The position numbers and the translations under genes are program-made. This document shows positions 3,520 to 48,245 of a DNA stretch of 64,000 bases, piece after piece. Under the pieces are notes generated by a model that saw nothing but the letters and a program-made list of their open reading frames with translations, was not told the origin of the DNA and made no database searches. Source of the DNA: Methanomassiliicoccales archaeon (GTDB lineage Archaea; Thermoplasmatota; Thermoplasmata; Methanomassiliicoccales; UBA472); contig JAPKYJ010000015.1 in assembly GCA_026394375.1 (NCBI GenBank), positions 15,265 to 79,264 on the forward strand, given 5' to 3'. Each line of letters starts with the position of its first letter. The stretch's first letter is position 1.

Positions 3520-4018
3520 CTGTACACCTTGCCCTTTGTACGATGGCATGATATAAATGCCTTTTCCCTCACTAGGAGAAATGTGTCCCAATTGTACACA
3601 TTACCGTTCGAAGTGCCCGCCTCAGGTAAGCGTTCCCAAACGGTGTTTGGTCCAAAGGCCTGAGTCTCCGTCAAGTCGAGATCCCGTTGGGCCCCGATCC
3701 AACCCAAGAGCTCTCCCGTCGGTCGGGCATTGGTTCCAACGTTCCCAATCCGGTGCTCGGGAGAAAGCAGCCTACGTGAGTGCGTCGCCGTGCATCAGAC
3801 TGGAGACCAAATAATCTGTGTCAATTGGCATTGAAGTCAATCCCACTTCGGGATCTGCTCACTGGGCGAAGGAAACCGAATTAATGTTTTGAGGCTAAGT
3901 CATGAAGCAGAAAAGGTACCCTGCAACGAACATGCTTCCGACGAGGCCTGACGATCTAGCATGCTCCTGCTACAGAAAAAACTAGATATGATTTAAAATC
4001 ATCAATCCTGCCGATAAT

Positions 4019-4471
4019 ATGTTCGAGCTCCAAGTGGTGAGCAGTACACCGCTCACTCCGCTGGACGACGCGGACGATGTGGCGTTGCAGTTCCTGGTCA
4101 TGATCGGCTACCTGCCAAAGGGCTATGATCCGAAGACCGAGGCGGACAACGTGCAGGAGAGCATCCCCTACCGGCTGTTCGTGGAATGCTTCCTGGGCAA
4201 CCTGAAACGAGCATGGACGGTGGAAGAGCTGGCGGCCAAGCTGAGGACCACCAAGCCCACCATCTACCGGCACCTGAACAAGCTCAAGGGCATCGACATC
4301 CTGGAGGAAGTGGACGTGCAGAAGGGGGGCGAACGCAAGAAAGGCTATCGCATTCGCTATGGAGACTTGTCAAAGGCCTGGAACTTCACCGAGGCCAACG
4401 TGGAGATGGCCATGGACTCCTACCGGAAGACGGTGGACCATCTGCAGAAGATCATCGAGGGGGGGAAGTGA
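4019..4471 (+). CDS. Winged-helix DNA-binding protein
   Basis: It has a wHTH-like segment (WTVEELAAKLRTTKPTIYRHLNKLKGIDILEEV). A TTTAAAA TATA-like box lies about 25-30 nt upstream of the ATG, suggesting a leaderless-type arrangement. Confidence 0.55.
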   Translation: MFELQVVSSTPLTPLDDADDVALQFLVMIGYLPKGYDPKTEADNVQESIPYRLFVECFLGNLKRAWTVEELAAKLRTTKPTIYRHLNKLKGIDILEEVDVQKGGERKKGYRIRYGDLSKAWNFTEANVEMAMDSYRKTVDHLQKIIEGGK

Positions 4472-38157: not shown

Positions 38158-39071
38158 CTAGGCATAGCCAGTACTGTCGAACTTTGTTTCAATCAGGGGG
38201 GTATAGACTTTAGGCCGGGTCTCCTCGGCCCATAGCCCCCTCACTTGCTCTAGCGCCTTCGTCTCTCTCATGCGCCCATAGTGCTCCTCGGTAGTCCTGG
38301 TGGTCTCGTGTCCCATGGTCACGGATATTGCGGAGAGCTTGCTCGCGTCCCGGTCGATGCACATCCTGGCAATAGGTGTTGCGGAACGTCTTGATGTGGA
38401 AATCTATCTTTTCACCTCCGGGGTCTACGTTCACCAATCGCTGCACCTTCCTCTTGATTTCCCAGAAGCGGGCGGAAGCGTAGAAGCCCGCCTTCCCGCG
38501 GCCATGGAACGCGGGAATCAGGACCTCGCATGCATTAACACCCATCTCGTCGAGCTTCATTCGCCTCTCCTTGAGGAAACGCTTGGCCGCCTCGTGTGCT
38601 GGCGGAAGGACAAGAACCATTCTCTGTCGGCCGTAGGACCTCTCGCCTTTGGGATGACGGACGCGGAAGGTCCAGTTCCTCAACTCCAAGTCCTCAAGGT
38701 TCGCGAGGCGAAGCTCGCTCGGCCTGAGACCGGTGGCCGGAAAGAATGCCGTCAGCAACATGGCGACCTGCCCCGTCCAGCCTTCGCTCCTCTCAGCCGC
38801 CATCTGCAACCTGATAACTCCGCCTCATCCAGTGACTTGAGATCCTTGGGTGCGGCGGTCGGCAAGCGTTCGCCCTCCACTGCGTTCGCCCTCCACTCTC
38901 ATCTGCTGGATGACAGGACTGCCAGAGAACGTCGTCACCTTGTCCAGTAGTCTGATCAGCTTCGACCAGTACCCAGAATCAAGACCGTTCCTCCAGATTA
39001 AGAAAGCCTGGACTATCAAACTAAGTTCTTCTCGCCTCCTGATGACTGAAATACTCTCTTGGCTTGGTCAT
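38158..39071 (-). pseudogene. Tyrosine recombinase/integrase, disrupted by several frameshifts
   Basis: Recombinase segments lie in different frames. These are MTKPREYFSHQEARR (39071 downward), VQAFLIWRNGLDSGYWSKLIRLL, TGLRPSELRLANLEDL...HIKTFRNTYCQ, and the C-terminal MGHETTRTTEEHYGR carrying the catalytic His/Tyr region. Confidence 0.7.
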
Positions 39072-39301
39072 CTTCTCGACCTCAGGGCTTTCTTACTTCC
39101 ATTCTGGACCATCAGTAATAAACTGGGAAGCCACCCGCGTGCTTGTTCAATATGATAATTGCTTAGGGTTGGCGATGTAATTACTAGATTGGCGGCCTAT
39201 TCATAGTCTGACCTGTCGGCCGCGTCGTTGCCAATCCATTGCAGATCAGTTGTCGGCTCCAAAGGCAAGGATATTAAGGCGGGCAGAGTGTCGTCTATAT
39301 C

Positions 39302-39661
39302 ATGGACGCCGACAAGATTCTCCGAGAGATGGAGAAGAATAGTGGGGAGGTCTGCAACCCATTGATCCTGACCTCCAAAATCATGCCTGAATGGATACCC
39401 CGACAAGCTGAGGAGGGCAAATTCGTGATGAGCCTTCCCAACGTACCACCGAAGTACAAGCAGCTCATAATGATCTCAGTGGCAGCAGCTCTCCAGAACA
39501 AGCAATGCACCGAGTACTTCATCAAAGTCGGGACGCATATGGGGTTGACTAGCAAAGAGATTGGAGAAGCTATTCTAGTCGCCCGATTCGCAATGGCATC
39601 AACGATATTTTCATCGGCCGAGGAAGGGTTTCACTCGCTAATCGAATCGGAGAGTAAGTAA
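39302..39661 (+). CDS. Carboxymuconolactone decarboxylase (CMD/AhpD-like) family protein
   Basis: PPKYKQLIMISVAAALQNKQCTEYFIKVGTHMGLTSKEIGEAILVA resembles the CMD helical core. Confidence 0.65.
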   Translation: MDADKILREMEKNSGEVCNPLILTSKIMPEWIPRQAEEGKFVMSLPNVPPKYKQLIMISVAAALQNKQCTEYFIKVGTHMGLTSKEIGEAILVARFAMASTIFSSAEEGFHSLIESESK

Positions 39662-39733
39662 AGCTGCAAATTTGATAGGGCATTTCCGTGAAAGGTCACG
39701 GGGCAAAAGGAAAGCGCGCAGCTCATCTTCTGC

Positions 39734-40066
39734 CTAGTCGAACACGAACTCCACGCTGTTCTCCTTGTTCTTTCTTGCGTTGGACTGCGCGATCATGCCC
39801 GCCTCGAGCCATGCGGCGGATAGTATGCCAGCCGGCACCAGGCAGTTCGCACTCATCCTCGTCACCCTCATGCGGTCGAAGACCTTGCTGTGCTGCTTGT
39901 CCGTTAGGTCCGTCAGCGTCAGCTCCTCCAGCCCGCTGGCGAACTCCTTGACGTTGTCGCACGGCGTTGTGACTTGGACTTTGTATGTTCCCTCTGGCGT
40001 TTGCGTAACCTCAACGGTCGTCGTCTTTGCGCACAGGTTCATGTTGACCTTCACTTTAGATGACAT
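39734..40066 (-). CDS. Small 3-Cys protein of unknown function (last gene of the acr3 operon)
   Basis: The ATG at 40066 is preceded by GAGGGGAG. The product MSSKVKVNMNLCAKTTTVEV...TTPCDNV...SANCLVPAG matched no family I recognise. Confidence 0.5.
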   Translation of the reverse strand: MSSKVKVNMNLCAKTTTVEVTQTPEGTYKVQVTTPCDNVKEFASGLEELTLTDLTDKQHSKVFDRMRVTRMSANCLVPAGILSAAWLEAGMIAQSNARKNKENSVEFVFD

Positions 40067-40126
40067 GTTTACTCCCCTCATTTTGTACGTTCCGTTCCTC
40101 TGAATGCCGATTGAGCAATCGGATTC

Positions 40127-40753
40127 CTATTCCTCCTCTGACCTCTTTATCAAGAATGCCGGCAACTCGAAGCCGCTGATCGGCCCCGTTTCGACATTCC
40201 ACCTGGTCATTATCCCGGTCTGCTTCTCTATACTGGCGCATAATCCAGGTATAATGAGGGTCCGGTGGTTGACTTTGCCAGCGACCGCGCTGTTCGTCAG
40301 ACCGCGCATCACGGTCATGGGGCTCATCAACTTCATGCCCGCAGCATGATCTATCGTGAACCCTTTGGTCTCCGTGGGCACGATGTATGCGCTGACCTTG
40401 GGGGCTTTCGAGAATATCAGGTTCAGGACGTGGATCGTGACTCCCGAATTGCCCGTAATGAGCACCGGAGAGTCCGGTCCGGGAGAGTTCACTTCGAACA
40501 GCTTTTCCGCGACGGTACTCATGGAGGCGTCCGCCTCATGGACCTCCAATTTGATTGATAGCGCTCCGGCCAGCGACTCGCTCATGAGAAGCGCCATCTC
40601 GGGGCAGTCTTTGACTTTCGCCTTACCTTCGCTCAATGCCGCAGCGAACTCCCTGCAGGTCTTATATCCGCAGCTGCCGCAATCCTTCCCTGGAAGATAC
40701 TTGACGATGTCATCCGGCGACATCCCGTAGAAATTGACAGCTTCCACCACCAT
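40127..40753 (-). CDS. Truncated CFeSP-large-subunit/HgcA-like protein: N-terminal [4Fe-4S] motif plus a corrinoid-binding Rossmann-like domain
   Basis: YLPGKDCGSCGYKTCREFAAALSEGKAKVKDCPEM fits C-x2-C-x4-C-x16-C as in the CdhE/AcsC N-terminus. DSPVLITGNS...TETKGFTIDHAAGMK...NHRTLIIPGL...GPISGFELPAFL aligns by eye with the corrinoid domain of CFeSP/HgcA. The ATG at 40753 lies 1 nt from the upstream stop. Confidence 0.6.
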   Translation of the reverse strand: MVVEAVNFYGMSPDDIVKYLPGKDCGSCGYKTCREFAAALSEGKAKVKDCPEMALLMSESLAGALSIKLEVHEADASMSTVAEKLFEVNSPGPDSPVLITGNSGVTIHVLNLIFSKAPKVSAYIVPTETKGFTIDHAAGMKLMSPMTVMRGLTNSAVAGKVNHRTLIIPGLCASIEKQTGIMTRWNVETGPISGFELPAFLIKRSEEE

Positions 40754-40754
40754 A

Positions 40755-41027
40755 TTATGCACCCTTCTTCTTGCCCTGCCCAGCAAATTCGATTTGAGCT
40801 CTCTCCTTCTCGTGCAATAGCGATTCAGCGAATTCCAGCATGCGCTCGTCCCCTTTCTCACTGATGATCTTGGCCAGATTGATCGCTCCTTGAATGTCCT
40901 CTTCGGGGACTCCCAGCAGCCTAGCCTTCTCCAAGTGGTGCTTAAGGCAAGGCTGGCAATGTCCAGCTACCGATGCTGCTATCGCCGTGATCTCCTTGCT
41001 TTTCTCATCCATTCTGACCCTCTCCAT
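40755..41027 (-). CDS. CMD/AhpD-like protein with a CxxC motif
   Basis: ITAIAASVAGHCQPCLKHHLEKARLLGVPEEDIQGAINLA resembles an alkylhydroperoxidase AhpD-core-type CxxC. Three candidate ATGs (41072, 41027, 41012) all overlap the acr3 3' end. Confidence 0.7.
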   Translation of the reverse strand: MERVRMDEKSKEITAIAASVAGHCQPCLKHHLEKARLLGVPEEDIQGAINLAKIISEKGDERMLEFAESLLHEKERAQIEFAGQGKKKGA

Positions 41028-42156
41028 TCTGCCGGGATGCCCCTCCAATTCTTTTCGAGAGCACTTTGCCATCTGGATCGTAATACCTTCTTCTTATCCA
41101 GAAGGCTGCATTCACCAAGCTTATCAGAACTGGCACCTCCACGAGCGGTCCGATTACTGCAGCGAACGCCACCAGCGAGCCGATTCCAAATATGCCTATT
41201 GAAACCGCGATGGCTAATTCGAAGTTGTTGCTGGCCGCGGTGAAGCTCTGCGCCGTCGCATGAGGATAATCGAACTTCATCTTGATCGATAATCCAAAAG
41301 AAAGGAAGAACATGATTACGAAGTAGATGACCAGCGGAATGGCAATCCGGACCACATCAAATGGCTGGTTAAGGATGTATTCGCCCTTGAAGGCGAACAT
41401 GACCACGATGGTGAAGAGCAATGCCAGTAGCGAAATTTTGCCTAGCTTGGGCATTAGGTTGTTATTGTACCAGTCCGCGCCCTTCCTTGGCAGAAGCAGG
41501 TATCTGGTCGCAACCCCCATGGCGAATGGGATTCCCAGATAGATGAGGACGCTCTGGGCCACCTGCCAGACACCAATATCGATCTGGGTGCCCGAACCCG
41601 GGACTATCCAATCGGATGCCACTGCAATGAGGAAGTAGGCATAGAATGAATACAGCAGTATCTGGAATACGGAGTTGAGCGCGACCAGAATGGCCGCATA
41701 CTCCGAATCTCCCTCCGCCAAAGTGTTCCACACGATTACCATGGCGATGCATCGGGCAATGCCCGTTAGAATGAGACCAATTCGGAAGAAGACGTTGTCC
41801 GGCAGGAAGATCCAGGCAAGGGAGAACATCAGGAGAGGACCGACAATGTAGTTCAAGGCCAGCGAGGTGCCGAACATCTTCTTGGCCTCGGGTTGCCTGG
41901 GTATCTCCTTGAGTTCCTCGTACTTGACCCTGGCCAACGGAGGCCACATCATCAATATGAGGCCGATGGCGATCGGTATGGATGTCGTACCTACGCTGAG
42001 CTCGTTGAGCGCGCCCGCGATGCCGGGAATGGCGGCCCCCAATGCGATCCCCACGAATATCGCTATGAATATCCAGAGGGTCAGAAACCTATTCAGGAAA
42101 GACAGCCTTCTGGCACCCTCCTGCGCTTTCGGTTCATCTTCGCCAACCTTGGTCAT
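41005..42156 (-). CDS. acr3: ACR3-family arsenite efflux permease
   Basis: It has about 10 TM helices. FLNRFLTLWIFIAIFVGIALG...MMWPPLARVKYEEL...NNFELAIAV are typical ACR3 motifs. The ATG at 42156 is preferred over the TTG at 42162. Confidence 0.9.
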   Translation of the reverse strand: MTKVGEDEPKAQEGARRLSFLNRFLTLWIFIAIFVGIALGAAIPGIAGALNELSVGTTSIPIAIGLILMMWPPLARVKYEELKEIPRQPEAKKMFGTSLALNYIVGPLLMFSLAWIFLPDNVFFRIGLILTGIARCIAMVIVWNTLAEGDSEYAAILVALNSVFQILLYSFYAYFLIAVASDWIVPGSGTQIDIGVWQVAQSVLIYLGIPFAMGVATRYLLLPRKGADWYNNNLMPKLGKISLLALLFTIVVMFAFKGEYILNQPFDVVRIAIPLVIYFVIMFFLSFGLSIKMKFDYPHATAQSFTAASNNFELAIAVSIGIFGIGSLVAFAAVIGPLVEVPVLISLVNAAFWIRRRYYDPDGKVLSKRIGGASRQNGEGQNG

Positions 42157-42192
42157 GCTCAAGCCCGCCCCGGATACTCCCGATGAAGAGTA

Positions 42193-42212
42193 ATTTCAAT
42201 TATTATTGAAAC
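42193..42212. promoter_or_regulatory. Palindromic operator candidate in the acr3/arsC divergent promoter
   Basis: The site reads ATTTCAA-TTATTA-TTGAAAC. A GATATAAATAAG TATA-like box follows at 42221-42232. The same palindrome recurs at 45474 and 46654. Confidence 0.45.
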
Positions 42213-42282
42213 GATAAGTAGATATAAATAAGTTCCTAACCATCGTTACCTTGGAATCCAGTTAACAGAGTAGAGGCAGGAA

Positions 42283-42699
42283 ATGAAGTCAGTCTTATTC
42301 ATATGCACCCATAATTCAGCTCGCTCACAGATGGCAGAGGGTCTGGTCAACTCGCTCTATTCGAAGGTCCTTCGCGCCGAGAGCGCTGGCACCAAGCCTA
42401 ACCAGGTGAACCCTCTAGCCATAGTGGCAATGGCCGAAATGGACATAGATATCTCCAACCATAAGTCCAAGAGCCTCAGCGAGTTCGAAGGCCAGCAATT
42501 CGACTATGTCGTAATGGTCTGCTCGGATGCTGCTGAAACCTGCCCTTTCTTTCCGGGAGGCGGAGAGCAGATCCATCATGGCTTCGATGACCCAGCCTCC
42601 GTGGAAGGAACCGATGAAGAGAGATTGCGAGCTTTCAGGAAGAGCAGGAATGAAATCAATAAGTGGATAATTGATAATCTTGTATTGCCCAGGGCGTAG
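42283..42699 (+). CDS. arsC: Arsenate reductase, LMW-PTP (thioredoxin-coupled) type
   Basis: It has the CX5R P-loop (LFICTHNSARSQMAEG) and the distal Cys pair (VCSDAAETCPFF). Confidence 0.9.
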   Translation: MKSVLFICTHNSARSQMAEGLVNSLYSKVLRAESAGTKPNQVNPLAIVAMAEMDIDISNHKSKSLSEFEGQQFDYVVMVCSDAAETCPFFPGGGEQIHHGFDDPASVEGTDEERLRAFRKSRNEINKWIIDNLVLPRA

Positions 42700-42710
42700 A
42701 GGATGTTAGG

Positions 42711-43118
42711 ATGGCCAGAGAGAAAGCGAAGAAGATTGAGTGCTGTGAGGACGCGATGAGTCTGCCCGAGGAGATGGAGGTGGCCGTTCGGCAGCGGGGT
42801 GGGCTGGAGGGGTTGAAGAGTCACGTTCCTGACAGGAAAAGCCTCGCTTCGGAAGCAGAGCTCTTCCATGCACTTTCAGATCCGATTCGACTCCAGATTC
42901 TGCACGCCCTCCTCCTCACTGACCTTTGCCCTTGCCTTCTCAAGGAGATCACGGGGCTTTCCAACTCAAAGCTCTCTTATCATCTCAGCATCCTTGAGGA
43001 ATCGCGACTGGTCGCCTCATCGCCTCGAAAGAAATGGCGTATCTACATGTTGACTGAATTTGGGAAATCTTGGATCAAGACTCGATCAAATCCGGCAACT
43101 GAGCCGGCTGACAATTGA
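42711..43118 (+). CDS. arsR: ArsR/SmtB-family metalloregulator
   Basis: It has LSDPIRLQILHALLLTDLCPCLLKEITGLSNSKLSYHLSILEESRLV, with CPC at the position of the classical ELCVCDL As(III) site. Confidence 0.85.
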   Translation: MAREKAKKIECCEDAMSLPEEMEVAVRQRGGLEGLKSHVPDRKSLASEAELFHALSDPIRLQILHALLLTDLCPCLLKEITGLSNSKLSYHLSILEESRLVASSPRKKWRIYMLTEFGKSWIKTRSNPATEPADN

Positions 43119-43156
43119 AAGGTCGAGAATGGCCGTTCCCGACCATCATTTTCTTG

Positions 43157-44977
43157 TTAGAAGATTTCCTTAGCCAGGGCCCTGAGGTTCTCCACTCCCT
43201 CCGGTGCATGGTCGAGCAGGGGCACCAAGAACAGAGGCACCTTGAACATGGGGCCGATTTCCCGCAAGTACTTCATCTGCTGCTCTCTCCTGCTCTCGAA
43301 GAACGCATTGCGGCCGTACTCCTTGGGCAGGATATAGTTCACTCCTACCAGCGCGGTCTCGATACCCACCTGCTTCCTCAACTCCTGTGACGCCCGCCAT
43401 GCTTCGATGATCGGTGTATACTCGGGATAGACGACGAAAACGAAGGTGCTCTTGTCCTTGGACTTCATCGTATCGATGACGCTCGCGTACTTGTTCCGCG
43501 TTTCATCGGAGGTCTTCTTGGCCAATGTGCCTAGGTCGATAAAACCCTTCCAATCAGAGGGCAGTTCGAGCAGCCTTAGGGTGTGGCCTGTGGGTGCGGT
43601 ATCGAAGATCACAGCCTGGTATTCTTCCAGCTCGAAATAGCTCATGAACTTCTCGAAGGCGGACATCTCCTCGGCGCAGGGAGAGTTGAGGTCCTCCTCG
43701 ACCGACTTCTGGACCTCCTCCGGTTGGTCCTTCACCGAATCGATTATTCTTTTTTTGTACTCATCAAGGGCCACCTTCTGGTCGATCCTGGCCACATCCA
43801 GGTTCTTGACCCCCTTTACCGGAGCGGGCGCCGACCCGACCTCCTGCTCGAATATTTCCTGGAGATGGGATGCGGGGTCGGTGGTGACGATGAGCGTTCT
43901 CAGCCCTTCGTCGGCGAGATACACGGACGTCGCGCAGGCCAGAGTGCTCTTGCCCACCCCTCCCTTCCCGGTGAAGAAGATGTATCTTGTGCCATTGGCG
44001 GGACGCAGCAGCTTTCGGACCGCGTTTAGGTCGCTCTTCACTATGGCCGAGGAGGCTCGTGCCTTTTCGGAGGCCTTATGCACCTGTACTTTCCGGCCAT
44101 CGAACAGATAGGAAGCCACAGATTCCAAAGCGTCAACCCCGTTGATCTCGGTGTCCTGGAGGGGATACTGCAGTTCGTTGAGCACGAAATCGCTCTTGAT
44201 CTCCTCCAGCATCGTGTCCTCTTCGGCCTTCTTCTTACGGAAGAAGGAATCAGTAGCCACATCAGCGGGAAGTACGCCATTGATGATCAGGAAGTTGGTC
44301 CTGATGCCCAGCTTGGAGAGCTCAACCATGCTCCGGTTGGTCTCGATAATCGATGACCTCTCCGGTTTAAGGACGAAAATGAATGAAGTCTTCGAGCCGT
44401 CTTGGAGGTATCCGATAGCCTTCTTGTACTTGGCCTTGGCTCCCTGCAATGAGGAACTCGGTCCGATGCACGTCGAACCACCCTTGTCCAGCTCAGTGGA
44501 CCAGCTGCTAGGCAGCTCTAGCAGCCGGATGGTATGGCCGGTCGGTGCAGTGTCGAAGACGACTGCATCATACTTAGGATCGTCCATGAACTCGATGAAG
44601 CTGTCGAAGGCCGCCACCTCGTCAACGCATGGGCTCTTCAATTGCTCCATCATCGCGTCCAGGTTCTTCTGGTCCAGGATGCCCTTGAGGGGGGAGACCA
44701 TCCGCTCCCGGTACTCTTGGGATGCGGCGTCCGGGTTGATCTCGACCGCATAGAGGTTAGGGACGTTGCTTATGGCCATGATGCGGTGCCCGATCTTCTG
44801 TCCGAAGATATCTCCAAGGTTCGGCGCGGGGTCAGTGGTCACGATGAGGGTCTTGTAGCCTTTGCGGGCTAGCCATACCGCAGTCGCGCAGCTCATGGTG
44901 CTCTTGCCCACCCCTCCCTTTCCACTGAAGAAGATGAACTTGGTCTTGCCGTTTTCTGGCTCAATCAATGTGTTCAT
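43157..44977 (-). CDS. arsA: Arsenite-stimulated ATPase ArsA (duplicated halves)
   Basis: It has two P-loops (GKGGVGKST) and two DTAPTGHT signal-transduction motifs. Confidence 0.95.
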   Translation of the reverse strand: MNTLIEPENGKTKFIFFSGKGGVGKSTMSCATAVWLARKGYKTLIVTTDPAPNLGDIFGQKIGHRIMAISNVPNLYAVEINPDAASQEYRERMVSPLKGILDQKNLDAMMEQLKSPCVDEVAAFDSFIEFMDDPKYDAVVFDTAPTGHTIRLLELPSSWSTELDKGGSTCIGPSSSLQGAKAKYKKAIGYLQDGSKTSFIFVLKPERSSIIETNRSMVELSKLGIRTNFLIINGVLPADVATDSFFRKKKAEEDTMLEEIKSDFVLNELQYPLQDTEINGVDALESVASYLFDGRKVQVHKASEKARASSAIVKSDLNAVRKLLRPANGTRYIFFTGKGGVGKSTLACATSVYLADEGLRTLIVTTDPASHLQEIFEQEVGSAPAPVKGVKNLDVARIDQKVALDEYKKRIIDSVKDQPEEVQKSVEEDLNSPCAEEMSAFEKFMSYFELEEYQAVIFDTAPTGHTLRLLELPSDWKGFIDLGTLAKKTSDETRNKYASVIDTMKSKDKSTFVFVVYPEYTPIIEAWRASQELRKQVGIETALVGVNYILPKEYGRNAFFESRREQQMKYLREIGPMFKVPLFLVPLLDHAPEGVENLRALAKEIF

Positions 44978-45033
44978 TTAACTCACTCCATCGTGGATGA
45001 TCGTGTTCATGATTTAGCCTCCAGCAGTTCATC

Positions 45034-45360
45034 TCATTGCGCAGCTAGGAGGGCTGACTTCATCTCGTCGTAAGTCATGTATCTCTCCTTGACGAGGATC
45101 TTCCCGTTCAGCACAGTTATCGGCAGGACGTCGGTTCCTTTCGTCTTAACTAGCTTGAGCACCTCAGGTTCTTCCAGATAGGCCTGAGCGTTGAAGGACA
45201 TAGATGCTCTGATGATTTTCGCATCGGGGAACTCGGCCTGCAGCCTCCTGACGTCCTCGGTTAACTGGATGAGTGCCTTATCTGGCTCTGGACCACAGAT
45301 GCCCGTGGAACAGCACAGCATCCCTTCATAAATAATCAGCTTCTTTGACATTTTCATCAC
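45034..45360 (-). CDS. arsD: Arsenic metallochaperone/repressor ArsD
   Basis: It has MLCCSTGICGPEPD, the Cys12/13/18-type motif, on a thioredoxin-like fold. It lies immediately upstream of arsA. Confidence 0.9.
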   Translation of the reverse strand: MMKMSKKLIIYEGMLCCSTGICGPEPDKALIQLTEDVRRLQAEFPDAKIIRASMSFNAQAYLEEPEVLKLVKTKGTDVLPITVLNGKILVKERYMTYDEMKSALLAAQ

Positions 45361-45473
45361 CGAATATCCTCTTATGTGCCAATCCTCACCCTCTTCTTCT
45401 AGATGATCGGCATTCTCTGGCCTTCCCTTGGCTCAATCCCTCAAACGTGTTGGTTGTCCTAGGCGCGATTGTC

Positions 45474-45493
45474 ATTTCAACAGATTTTGAAAT
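45474..45493. promoter_or_regulatory. Palindromic operator candidate upstream of arsDA
   Basis: The site reads ATTTCAA-CAGATT-TTGAAAT, a perfect 7-bp inverted repeat. The 12-mer TTGTCATTTCAA occurs twice (45469-45480 and 45514-45525), flanking a TATA-like GTTTATTAG on the coding strand. Confidence 0.45.
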
Positions 45494-45687
45494 ATCGTTA
45501 TGGCTAATAAACTTTGTCATTTCAAAAGTATCCGAATCGATGATCATACACACCGTTCTCATGATGTGGGGCTACGATTCGGGCAAGAGGAAGGGAGGTT
45601 TGTTGGTCAAACGGTTCTCCAACGTGAACAATGATCTCCGTGACCTGGTGGACGCGTCCGTCTATCTCATGTTGGTCGGTATCGGAC

Positions 45688-46341
45688 CTAAGGCCGTAGC
45701 TGGCTCTCCACTAGACTCGCCACTCTGTTGACGTCTTCCTGATTTGGATTGAGCTGGTCGTAATCCTTTTTTATCCCCAGATTGGTGACGACCACCTGTA
45801 ATGTGGGCTCGATGCCGGCATGCCTCAGGGTTTTGTAGGCGCACTGGGCGGCACAGCCGTCTAGGGATACGACCCGGTTGGCCTTTTTCGCCGAGGTGAT
45901 GAAGCCCTGCCCGTGTGATCCAACTCCGGCTAGGCATGAGAATTTCCCCAATCCTCGGTTGACCAAGGACTTGGCTACCTCATTGGATATCTGCCCGACA
46001 TTAGAGCCTCCGGAGCATGGATAGAACACGGCCCCCGTACCGGAGCATCCGCAGGTGGGATTAATCACCTTGATATCGGAGGCCGGCAGTGTTCCCTTGT
46101 CCTTCCCCACGGTCTCGATCATTTCCTTTATCTCTTCCACGCTGGGCACTCGACCCATCGACCGGATTTCGCCGTCGATAACCAGCCCGGGCGTCATCGT
46201 GATGCCCTTGCGTATGAGCATCTCGAAATCCTCCACTTTGAGGATCTGAGCTTCGATGCCCAATTCATCTACCGCCCTCTGGGCATTGTTCATGAGCCGC
46301 TCGCAGTTACTGCACCCCAGTCCGAAAACCTCAATTATCAT
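45688..46341 (-). CDS. Fusion of a thioredoxin-fold (MTH895/TM0996-like, CxxC) domain and a DGC zinc-binding domain
   Basis: The N-terminus is IIEVFGLGCSNCERL...TPGLVIDGE. The C-terminus is CGCSG...YPCSGGSNVGQ...VVSLDGCAAQCA, which carries the DGC motif. Confidence 0.75.
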   Translation of the reverse strand: MIIEVFGLGCSNCERLMNNAQRAVDELGIEAQILKVEDFEMLIRKGITMTPGLVIDGEIRSMGRVPSVEEIKEMIETVGKDKGTLPASDIKVINPTCGCSGTGAVFYPCSGGSNVGQISNEVAKSLVNRGLGKFSCLAGVGSHGQGFITSAKKANRVVSLDGCAAQCAYKTLRHAGIEPTLQVVVTNLGIKKDYDQLNPNQEDVNRVASLVESQLRP

Positions 46342-46592
46342 GACTTAGCCCTCCGATGATATTCCTCCAACAGTGCCCTCTCGTACTCCGAACTTGCGTT
46401 CGAGGGCACATAGTTGAAGACTTTCACCTTCTCCAGCAATGCCTCTCCGATCTCGGCATCGCTCTGGAGCCCCATCGCCCTGATCTCGCTCATGACCTCT
46501 TCGAGCTGAGAAAGACCGATAGGGCTTCCGTTTATCATGAGCTGCTTTATCTTGCGTGCGGCTGCCTCCGCGCAACAAGGCTTGTCTTCCAT
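46338..46592 (-). CDS. Small CC-motif protein of unknown function
   Basis: The product is MEDKPCCAEAAARKIKQLMINGSPIGLSQLEEV...NYVPSNASSEYERALLEEY. Its stop overlaps the start of the Trx-DGC gene (ATGA). Confidence 0.45.
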   Translation of the reverse strand: MEDKPCCAEAAARKIKQLMINGSPIGLSQLEEVMSEIRAMGLQSDAEIGEALLEKVKVFNYVPSNASSEYERALLEEYHRRAKS

Positions 46593-46653
46593 ATCTCGCA
46601 CCTACAATTTGCTCGGTTTCTTACAACGACACGATTGCTAATGACGATTAGAT

Positions 46654-46673
46654 ATTTCAACATTATTTAAAAT
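46654..46673. promoter_or_regulatory. Third copy of the ars palindrome, overlapping a TATA-like box
   Basis: The site reads ATTTCAA-CATTAT-TTAAAAT, with one mismatch in the right half. On the coding strand it reads ATTTTAAATAATGTTGAAAT, about 60-80 nt upstream of the 46592 start. Confidence 0.4.
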
Positions 46674-47650
46674 GATTCTTGCTATGAATTCTTGCCACCT
46701 TGGCCATTCTCAGCCATGGCTATGGCAAAAATGATATCACAGCTCTTTCACAATCCTCCCTTAGGCTTGCTTGCAGATGGAGGGTCCCATTGGAGTATAC
46801 CCGTGCCACCACGCCGATTTCCTCCATCAGGATGGTGAGCTGGGGGCCCTGTGCCACAACATCCATGAAGCCTGCCTCCTCAAGTCTTCTGGCGAGAAGA
46901 TCAAAATCAATGTTAATGCGCTCTCGCGGTAGCGCCTCATATTCTTCAATGTTCCGGCTGAGCCCACTCGTGCAAATCCTCGGGGAGTAATCCGGTCGTT
47001 TCCGTGGACTGTAGTCCCAATCGGTGCACCCATGTCCAGTCGCGAACTAGCCCCTTCCATGCCCCAACCCCTAAGATCCTTCTAGAGTCTCAACGAAAAG
47101 AGAGTAAGGCGTTTCCTAAAAAGGCCAGTAATCCGTTTCGGTCATCTGGGAGTTGGCAGGATTTCGTCCCTAATTCCCAGTGGAGAATCGTCGTTCTGGA
47201 TGGGTCCATTTGTTGTGTTCGGGCAGACCCACCACTCTTTGTAGCCAGCACAGTCGTCATGCGGTCAATGAAGGGGGTTCCTTGGATCGCTCATAGGTTA
47301 AAAAAGTGGATGAAGGGGTTTGGCGCCTCTCTCGGAGGTCAATACCCTCCTGATTGAAGTGCGACGTTCGAGTACTGGCTAGATGACGGGACACATTCTG
47401 GGGGATCTACTAGATGGGACCAATACAAATGACCATCCTCAGCGCCCGGGCTTCCTATTTGGGGATCTCCTCCAGAAGCCGTTCTCAGTGACTTGGGACA
47501 TAGTCGCGGTTCACCGCCCCAGTGACATGTGGGGATTCTACGGTCAGTTTGTGTCGCACTTCCCTGGATCGGAGTCAACACAGTTCTATTACATCTGCTA
47601 CAACTCCCTGGCCGACCGCAATAACAACTACGATACATAAACCATAACCA

Positions 47651-47674
47651 CGCAGAGGGTCGATTCCCTCTGCG
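47651..47674. other. Perfect 9-bp stem-loop
   Basis: CGCAGAGGG-TCGATT-CCCTCTGCG is followed by the pyrimidine-rich CCTTCCTTTC. It lies about where G+C appears to rise again. Confidence 0.3.
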
Positions 47675-47921
47675 CCTTCCTTTCAGCTCAAGGGAATGGC
47701 GAACATACCTGTTGATTCGGGGCAAATGCTCCTCTACCCGAATCTATGGGCGAAGGTCAATCTCTTAACCCAAGAGACACCATGCGATAGAGACTGACGT
47801 GAAGGGTCGCCGCGCAGACATGAGAGCATGCCAGAGCAAGAGAGCGCGGTTTGGCTTATTGGGCTGCACGACGCGGGCCAAGGCTGTCGAATGTGGCTGC
47901 CGAGGTTCCACATGTCGTTCC

Positions 47922-48245
47922 CTAGAATGGTGAATAGCTCATCGTGCCGAGCACGTAGATCGCAAACGGGATGATGATGTAGAGGATGCCCGTGGCCCCG
48001 CATACAACCAGAAACGCATCGTTGCCGGATGCCATCGAGCCGCGCCTTCGTTCGTCGACTGCTTCAATGGCTGCGAAGAAGAGGAACCAAACAGATGCAA
48101 TCCATAGCGCGAATTCCGCAACCAGAACCAGCAGTCGCTCATCTTGGGTCCACATTCCACCAGTCAGATACGGGACGAGCAAGATGATTGCACCAGTGAC
48201 GAAGAGCCCAATCGAAAGAAGGTACCTTCGATGTCTGACCTTCAT
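47922..48245 (-). CDS. Membrane protein (3-4 TM), unknown function
   Basis: It is a hydrophobic 107-aa ORF (LLSIGLFVTGAIILLV, LVLVAEFALWIASVWFLFFAAI, ILYIIIPFAIYVL). Confidence 0.4.
   Translation of the reverse strand: MKVRHRRYLLSIGLFVTGAIILLVPYLTGGMWTQDERLLVLVAEFALWIASVWFLFFAAIEAVDERRRGSMASGNDAFLVVCGATGILYIIIPFAIYVLGTMSYSPF

Follow-up and report, generated by a model that had tools for sequence, protein, structure and literature searches.

The arsenic (ars) island of a Methanomassiliicoccales archaeon carries in the promoter regions of its operons a short AT-rich palindrome, ATTTCAA-N6-TTRAAAY, which is most probably the operator of ArsR, a regulator encoded within the island itself. The island lies in a stretch of 64,000 nucleotides from contig JAPKYJ010000015.1 (assembly GCA_026394375.1), referred to throughout as the window. 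Within the window the palindrome is specific to the island; among relatives it is conserved, it stands at promoters and it is associated with genes of the ArsR family. The protein proposed to bind it would be a homodimeric winged-helix repressor of the ArsR/SmtB family, released from DNA by arsenite, As(III). De-repression of ars genes by regulators of the ArsR type is itself a well-known class of control, and its occurrence here is expected; what gives the case its value is the archaeal promoter architecture of the box and the regulon that the box marks out. To our knowledge, no transcription factor site has been characterised in the order Methanomassiliicoccales.

The copies in the window are as follows:

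42193..42212, unstranded: operator 1, ATTTCAA-TTATTA-TTGAAAC, in the divergent acr3 / arsC-arsR promoter region
45474..45493, unstranded: operator 2, the proximal site of the arsDA promoter, a perfect ATTTCAA-CAGATT-TTGAAAT
45519..45538, unstranded: operator 2', the distal and degenerate site of the same promoter, ATTTCAA-AAGTAT-CCGAATC, with four mismatches in 14 positions and a single half-site intact
46654..46673, unstranded: operator 3, ATTTCAA-CATTAT-TTAAAAT, in the promoter of the genes for a small 'CC' protein (CC87) and a thioredoxin-DGC fusion (Trx-DGC)

A first-pass annotation of the same DNA had reported operators 1, 2 and 3 together with a 12-nt direct repeat (TTGTCATTTCAA, at 45469-45480 and 45514-45525), and all of these coordinates agree with the sequence. 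Its pattern, ending in TTRAAAT, describes operators 2 and 3 and fails at operator 1, whose right half ends in C, and TTRAAAY covers all three. The direct repeat is likewise present, and is reinterpreted here: its second copy is the surviving half of a second, decayed operator. Across the 64 kb, ATTTCAA-N6-TTRAAAY finds three matches, only at 42193, 45474 and 46654, where 100 dinucleotide shuffles lead one to expect 0.00, and a scan relaxed to four or fewer mismatches in 14 positions gains nothing but the degenerate copy at 45519 and a handful of poor matches. Outside the ars island, in the remaining ~55 kb of the window, no copy was found at any other promoter. A weak match at 3819-3836 (TGTCAA-N6-TTGAAG, two mismatches) was rejected as a site, its chance expectation being 1.16. 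It lies about 200 bp upstream of a second HTH_20/HTH_5 (ArsR-family) gene at 4019-4471 (+), the product of which has no sensor cysteines and a recognition helix that differs from that of the island ArsR.

Independent support comes from the relatives. Through alignment of ArsR homologues, 39 Methanomassiliicoccales loci were fetched, one per species genome (individual loci are given below by L numbers), and scanned for the core TTTCAA-N6-TTGAAA with one mismatch allowed. In 555 kb of this related DNA the core is present as 32 exact and 64 one-mismatch copies, as compared with 0-2 exact copies for each of the other spacings from 0 to 14 and for each everted or direct arrangement of the half-sites. 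Base composition is excluded as the explanation: 71 kb of crudely delimited intergenic DNA (GC 47%; the window plus the 39 loci) contain 24 exact and 42 one-mismatch copies, against 0.007 and 0.3 expected from shuffles of the same 71 kb that preserve local composition. Inside real genes there are only two one-mismatch copies, about the chance level. Conservation extends beyond the pattern that was searched for, with a flanking A in 81% of copies, a preceding C or T, and four central spacer positions that are ~90% A/T; the G/C positions of the half-sites are invariant. The box can be written as yATTTCAA-W6-TTGAAATr.

The positions of the palindrome recur as well. It is found in the acr3/arsC(R) intergenic region at every locus with an ArsR orthologue beside acr3, and upstream of arsD in relatives, frequently as two copies 45-53 bp apart. 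It is also found upstream of CC87-Trx operons, ArsP permease genes, divergent FmdE-like/DUF6951 pairs, homologues of an FeS/corrinoid protein encoded in the island, and HMA P-type ATPases; in the last case it lies directly upstream of the HMA-domain P1B-type ATPase genes, at L017 2081, L019 9322 and L038 8188. The proposal that the promoters of the island share one operator gains its support from this recurrence: more than 20 species-level genomes of the Methanomassiliicoccales keep the palindrome at the corresponding promoters. Among loci retrieved independently, via the FeS/corrinoid protein or a small protein resembling the TATA-binding protein (TBP), L200 and L202-L205 have palindromes at their ars promoters. 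No palindromes occur in L201, in which RACo and MtaBC accompany an FeS/corrinoid homologue of 53% identity.

Around the palindromes, the positions of TATA boxes, B recognition elements (BREs) and transcription starts were predicted from the archaeal consensus and from conservation, using a mafft alignment of 18 orthologous acr3/arsC(R) intergenic regions and, separately, comparison of the regions upstream of arsD and CC87. The elements placed in this way in the window are:

42221..42232 (+): predicted TATA-like box GATATAAATAAG of the arsC-arsR promoter, beginning 9 nt past operator 1 and conserved in the alignment
42233..42250 (+): conserved block TTCCTAACCATCGTTACC that follows the TATA-like box, ahead of the expected transcription start, and includes the dyad TAAC-CATC-GTTA
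45505..45513 (-): predicted TATA-like box GTTTATTAG of the arsDA promoter, between its two operators, aligning with TTTATTA or TATATTA

The 18 acr3/arsC(R) regions retain two conserved blocks, the palindrome and, 9-15 nt further on, GATATAAATAAG followed by TTCCTAACCATCGTTACC. Operator 1 is 71 bp upstream of arsC, whose 3' neighbour arsR follows after 12 nt, and this arrangement too is conserved among the 18 regions. On the other side, 36 nt separate operator 1 from the ATG of acr3. In the alignment the centre of the palindrome is 30-50 nt from the acr3 start codon and nothing else is conserved, so the acr3 core promoter must overlap the palindrome. One relative offers a natural operator deletion: at L002 6380-6580 a breakpoint within the TATA box of the arsC-arsR promoter has removed acr3 and the palindrome along with part of that box, and the downstream TTCCTAACCATCGTTA block is still present. 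A second conserved element lies between the predicted TATA box and the expected start of transcription, represented by TTCCTAACCATCGTTACC at arsC and by TCTAATCGTCATTAGC at CC87 (46639-46650, -), where the dyads are TAAC-CATC-GTTA and CTAAT-CGTC-ATTAG, respectively. The element is conserved in nine loci and occurs at no promoters other than those of arsC and CC87; a role as initiator or leader sequence, or as the site of a second factor, is possible.

Upstream of arsD the aligned order, read on the arsD strand, is distal palindrome, GACAAAG, TTTATTA, ~10 nt, proximal palindrome, and a short leader with a GGTGAT Shine-Dalgarno sequence. Counterparts of the TATA-like box, as TTTATTA or TATATTA, are present in L001-L003, L006, L009 and L017, and, measured from centre to centre, the proximal operator is ~26 bp downstream of the TATA-like box, at the expected transcription start. 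In the window the proximal operator is perfect and the distal one retains only its TTGAAATGACAA half (the second copy of the direct repeat), at a position where relatives have a full palindrome. The window also has a longer leader (45358-45473), which puts the proximal arsD operator ~115 nt from the start codon as opposed to ~25-40 nt in L001-L003; in the extra sequence, perhaps the remnant of a lost upstream gene, there are short similarities to L006, L009 and L012. At the CC87 promoter the conserved sequence is CATTTTRAATAATGTTGAAAT. The degenerate half of operator 3, on the minus strand, reads TTTTAAATAA and is the predicted TATA-like box of the CC87 / Trx-DGC promoter, and the region is kept as ATTTTGAATAATGTTGAAAT in L001-L003. 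Conserved TATA-like boxes are found 7-9 nt from the operators, between operators or inside operators, and the suggestion made from the window alone, that the palindromes adjoin or overlap TATA boxes, is upheld by the alignments as far as such predicted boxes allow.

This architecture lends itself to a simple model of repression. In the absence of arsenite, one ArsR dimer would occupy each palindrome. The operator would overlap the AT-rich TATA region at acr3 and CC87/Trx-DGC, at arsC-arsR it would end 9 nt upstream of the TATA box, over the BRE, and at arsDA two operators 45 bp apart would bracket the TATA box, with the proximal one covering the expected transcription start. Bound ArsR would exclude TBP, transcription factor B (TFB) or RNA polymerase, and the promoters would be kept clear of them because the operators overlap or flank core promoter elements. 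Binding of As(III) to Cys11/Cys12 and to Cys73/Cys75, in helix alpha-3, would lower the affinity of ArsR for DNA and lead to the joint de-repression of four units: acr3 with the genes for an AhpD-like protein, the FeS/corrinoid protein and a DUF6951 protein; arsC-arsR, which would be autoregulated; arsD-arsA; and CC87-Trx-DGC.

The candidate binder is a clear member of its family (Pfam HTH_5, 1.9e-11; NCBIfam metalloregulator ArsR/SmtB, 1.5e-18), matches the sequences of the solved SmtB, NolR and CgArsR structures, and is 100% identical to a protein of a Methanomassiliicoccales metagenome-assembled genome. Among 37 homologues there is no exception to Cys73 and Cys75, and Cys11 and Cys12 are kept in at least 90%; the window ArsR has no C-terminal cysteines. 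The choice of this protein as the binder, made in the first-pass annotation, is favoured by the distribution of the motif, which stands before arsC-arsR, is absent at paralogue loci without ars neighbours, and adjoins arsR elsewhere. At 12 of the loci (L022-L028, L031, L032, L035-L037) the ArsR belongs to a paralogue group with a different wing sequence and no N-terminal Cys pair; these loci have no palindrome, and no ars neighbours except, in most, a distant (~38% identical) single-domain ArsA-like match. The same 12 loci have another conserved inverted repeat, CCGAAGG...AAAATAAT...CCTTTTCGG, placed around a TATA-like box of their own and ~60 bp upstream of the arsR-like gene.

Beyond the order, public metagenomic contigs were scanned with ATTTCAA-N6-TTGAAAYGA alone, which returned at least 120 loci, mostly AT-rich chance matches. 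Among the matches listed, seven of ten ArsR-family genes have their start no more than 41 bp from the motif, and a second palindrome is often close by; the seven loci are unrelated to one another, and four further listed loci hold ars genes. All regulators found beside the motif in the listed matches are ArsR-family genes, and they sit directly at it. The scan thus bears on the association of the box with ArsR genes rather than on its genome-wide specificity. Three of the metagenomic regulators have C-terminal cysteines and belong to the type of Acidithiobacillus ferrooxidans ArsR, AfArsR (PDB 6j05, E 1.6e-19), and on plasmid pRF23 of Burkholderia ubonensis the sequence ATTTCAA-CTATGA-TTGAAAT abuts the arsR ATG in an arsR-arsI-arsC-arsC-acr3 operon. 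Because metagenomic and pRF23 arsR genes carry it, the box is a widespread ArsR box and not one specific to archaea.

Several observations weigh against repression by the island ArsR at all of these sites. There are paralogues with an identical recognition helix (DSKLSYHL) that lack the motif, L002 retains its arsC-arsR genes without an operator there, and the same box is present at P-type ATPase promoters near a third group of ArsR paralogues (L017, L019, L038). Furthermore, the arsC-arsR operator is placed ahead of the TATA box, a position from which activation is also possible in archaea, and the degenerate half-site of operator 3 has a second role as a TATA box and, in the ancestral sequence, as a stop codon. 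As other ArsR clades use the box, and P-type ATPase promoters carry it too, the paralogue that binds any one copy cannot be read from sequence; the box may be common to metal and metalloid regulons, and another ArsR-family protein could share the sites or compete for them. That the palindrome is instead the operator of some other protein, whether a paralogue from the ArsR family or an unrelated factor from another part of the genome, is nonetheless unlikely. The recognition helix is common to several paralogue groups, the L038 palindrome at an HMA P-type ATPase promoter has only a group-3 paralogue nearby, and the window itself contains the second HTH_20/HTH_5 gene at 4019-4471; yet the group-2 and group-3 paralogues have no motif in their own promoters, that second regulator has neither sensor cysteines nor the same recognition helix, and the regulators beside the motif in the metagenomic scan, among the matches listed, are all of the ArsR family and directly at the motif. 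It is quite improbable that ArsR is an activator or dual regulator at arsC-arsR and represses only where its site overlaps a TATA box or transcription start. Sites of archaeal regulators upstream of the BRE are often activating, and operator 1 ends 9 nt ahead of the conserved arsC TATA-like box, but with only 36 nt to the acr3 ATG the same operator must overlap the acr3 core promoter as well, and a dimer footprint of ~26-30 bp would extend to the BRE. The distal arsD operator occupies an equivalent position at a TATA box that is clearly bracketed, and in bacteria repression is exerted even from ArsR operators upstream of the -35 element (PMC12607644).

Readings that dispense with a dedicated DNA-binding protein fare worse. 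The spacer and one half of operator 3 do resemble a TATA box, as they would if the palindromes were AT-rich core promoters (bidirectional TATA boxes) or chance repeats, but this is highly improbable given the absence of any copy at other promoters in the ~55 kb of the window outside the island, the separate conserved TATA-like boxes beside the palindromes, the strict N6 spacing and invariant G/C positions, a shuffle expectation ~3,000-fold below the observed count, and the same sequence at bacterial arsR genes, which have no TATA boxes. Chance or composition was ruled out by the window shuffles, the intergenic and block shuffles and the spacing control, and a general promoter element by the absence of further copies in the window. 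We give next to no credence to the inverted repeat acting as an RNA hairpin, be it a terminator, a processing site or a leader structure: a 7-bp A/U-rich stem can form, but its predicted stability is -2.3 to -5.0 kcal/mol, shuffled sequences span the same range as three of the four folds, Rfam gives no match at E <= 1, and the half-sites are invariant without covariation. The sites, moreover, are placed in divergent promoter regions and over TATA boxes, for the most part ahead of the points where transcription is expected to begin. On the weak folds and the absent Rfam matches the RNA-structure reading was rejected.

Repression by the island ArsR would have parallels in several known systems. 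The site has an AT-rich 7-6-7 dyad, it precedes the regulator's own operon, and an ArsR-type winged helix-turn-helix protein is encoded next to it, as in the ArsR/SmtB family at large. The published 12-2-12 core of that family is TAxAxTCAAATAxxTATTTGAxTxTA (PMC6555750). With the canonical 12-2-12 operators (those of SmtB, CadC, CzrA, NmtR and R773 ArsR) the box shares an imperfect AT-rich dyad and the TCAA/TTGA cores of the half-sites; those operators are autoregulatory, are bound by a winged-helix dimer and are commonly paired, features to which the present box may be likened. In contrast, the gap between TCAA and TTGA is 6 bp here and 8 bp there, and the symmetric unit is ~22 bp (8-6-8) rather than 26 bp. 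The island box does not match the canonical consensus (TCAAATA-xx-TATTTGA) and is a spacing variant of it. In Bacillus and E. coli the ArsR operator is just upstream of the -35 element (PMC12607644), which is comparable to the placement of operator 1 and of the distal arsD operator just upstream of a TATA box. Identity of both sequence and spacing is found with ars boxes of the AfArsR type (pRF23 and the metagenomic loci L082, L153 and L176), which lie directly before arsR and are sometimes in tandem. Regulators of the AfArsR type sense As(III) by a C-terminal cysteine cluster (Cys95/96/102), whereas the window ArsR has an N-terminal CC and a CPC in helix alpha-3, and a match to PDB 6j05 is confined to the metagenomic and plasmid regulators; and the bacterial sites accompany sigma-70-type promoters, whereas those of the island accompany predicted archaeal TATA and BRE elements. 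In its cysteines the window ArsR recalls CgArsR of Corynebacterium glutamicum (PDB 6j0e) and the alpha-3N arrangement of CadC, sharing with CgArsR an N-terminal 'ECC' pair and a helix alpha-3 Cys, although the similarity is weak (E 6e-4) and there are four conserved cysteines here.

Among archaea, the repressors MDR1, Phr, LrpA and those of the TrmB type have operators on or beside the TATA box and BRE, or at the transcription start, and block TBP/TFB or RNA polymerase. These belong to other protein families than ArsR, and the corresponding geometry here is predicted from conserved TATA-like boxes. An ars operon has been published for Ca. Methanomassiliicoccus armoricus MXMAG1 by its gene content, with no operator, promoter architecture or extended regulon (PMC7824343); its gene cluster, locus L012 of our set, is of the same type and carries palindromes. 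No published operator or footprint of this sequence, nor any Methanomassiliicoccales ArsR site, was found in the literature searched, subscription papers aside.

The genes of the island were mapped by Pfam and NCBIfam profile searches together with reading of the sequence:

39734..40081 (-): DUF6951 protein, the last gene in the acr3 operon
40127..40753 (-): 208-aa CFeSP/HgcA-like protein combining a [4Fe-4S] 'FeS' domain with a corrinoid-binding one, with its ATG one base past the stop codon of the AhpD-like gene
40755..41012 (-): AhpD-like CxxC protein of 85 aa, its first 8 nt shared with the end of acr3
41005..42156 (-): acr3, arsenite efflux permease, by family search
42283..42699 (+): arsC, arsenate reductase of the low-molecular-weight phosphatase / thioredoxin type, ending 12 nt ahead of arsR
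42711..43118 (+): arsR, the candidate binder, a winged-helix HTH_5 protein with Cys11-Cys12 and Cys73-Pro-Cys75
43157..44977 (-): arsA ATPase, by family search
45034..45357 (-): arsD metallochaperone, the likely start being the ATG at 45351, which has a GGTGAT Shine-Dalgarno sequence before it
45688..46341 (-): Thioredoxin_3 (MTH895/ArsE family) fused to a DGC domain, by family search
46338..46592 (-): CC87, an 84-aa 'CC' protein (MEDKPCC...), kept beside ArsP and Trx genes in relatives
46663..47043 (-): pseudogene of a one-repeat TBP-like protein, its start codon changed from ATG to GCG and with two frameshifts

CC87 has no family match. The GC content of the island (39000-48000) is ~52% as against ~60% in its flanks, and a fragment of a phage integrase lies at its left edge (38210-38809). 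Together, the low GC and the integrase fragment suggest that the island was horizontally acquired. The gene map also settles how the corrinoid protein enters the predicted regulon. The first-pass annotation had placed it there as an operon of its own. The CC protein and the corrinoid protein are different genes, and the latter, for which no promoter or palindrome of its own was found in the window, is tightly packed behind acr3 and the AhpD-like gene; it is counted in the regulon because it sits inside the acr3 operon, and as such the earlier prediction of its membership stands.

The FeS/corrinoid protein has sub-threshold matches to the C-terminal part of CdhE/AcsC, to an HgcAB-like fusion model and to the HgcA corrinoid model. 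Among clusters of its homologues, 56 of 59 look like Methanomassiliicoccales sequences, all above E 1e-22. Homologues at least 64% identical are encoded in ars operons, and the 53%-identical one lies next to RACo and MtaBC. The range of the family and these neighbourhoods raise the possibility of a corrinoid-dependent arsenic function. Methanomassiliicoccales have been reported to be without arsM. Some of their ars islands, however, encode ArsR-ArsM-like fusions ('ArsRM', HTH_5 plus an S-adenosylmethionine-dependent methyltransferase domain; L202 8298-9365 and L205 1963-3060), which speak against the published absence of arsM from the order.

A family of one-repeat TBP-like proteins of ~100 aa is encoded immediately 5' of palindromic ars promoters, the gene order in relatives being FmdE, TauE, one-repeat TBP-like protein, palindrome, ArsP or CC87, and then Trx. 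The predicted fold (pLDDT, predicted local distance difference test, 91.6) is a single TBP repeat, and the top Foldseek matches are archaeal and eukaryotic TBPs, led by that of M. jannaschii (2z8u; 29% identity, probability 1.0). In the window the ancestral stop codon (TAA) of the pseudogene lies inside operator 3, and to the right of that site tblastn detected no remains of an FmdE or TauE gene. Intact copies in the islands of relatives are:

L006 9750-10055: intact one-repeat TBP-like gene
L012 7677-7988: intact one-repeat TBP-like gene
L015 9140-9499: intact one-repeat TBP-like gene
L203-L205: intact one-repeat TBP-like genes

Beyond acr3, arsC, arsR, arsD and arsA, candidate members of an extended regulon are the FeS/corrinoid protein, the AhpD-like CxxC protein and DUF6951, and further the FmdE-like zinc-ribbon protein, the TauE permease, CC87 with its Trx(-DGC) partner, and the one-repeat TBP paralogue. 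It is conceivable, if doubtful, that the box delimits an undescribed extended arsenic regulon of the Methanomassiliicoccales in which corrinoid-dependent methylation or demethylation of arsenic would be under ArsR, and in which the half-TBP would serve as a dedicated factor at operators that overlap the TATA box.

For the biology of this methanogen order, the palindrome offers a testable operator and promoter architecture for the regulation of arsenic genes. One ArsR box (TCAA-N6-TTGA) is common to archaeal and bacterial ArsR clades with different sensor sites, which makes it useful for regulon prediction and for the design of biosensors. The box also provides a sequence handle on membership of the arsenic response for proteins such as the HgcA-like corrinoid/FeS protein, DUF6951, the FmdE-like protein, CC87 and the half-TBP.

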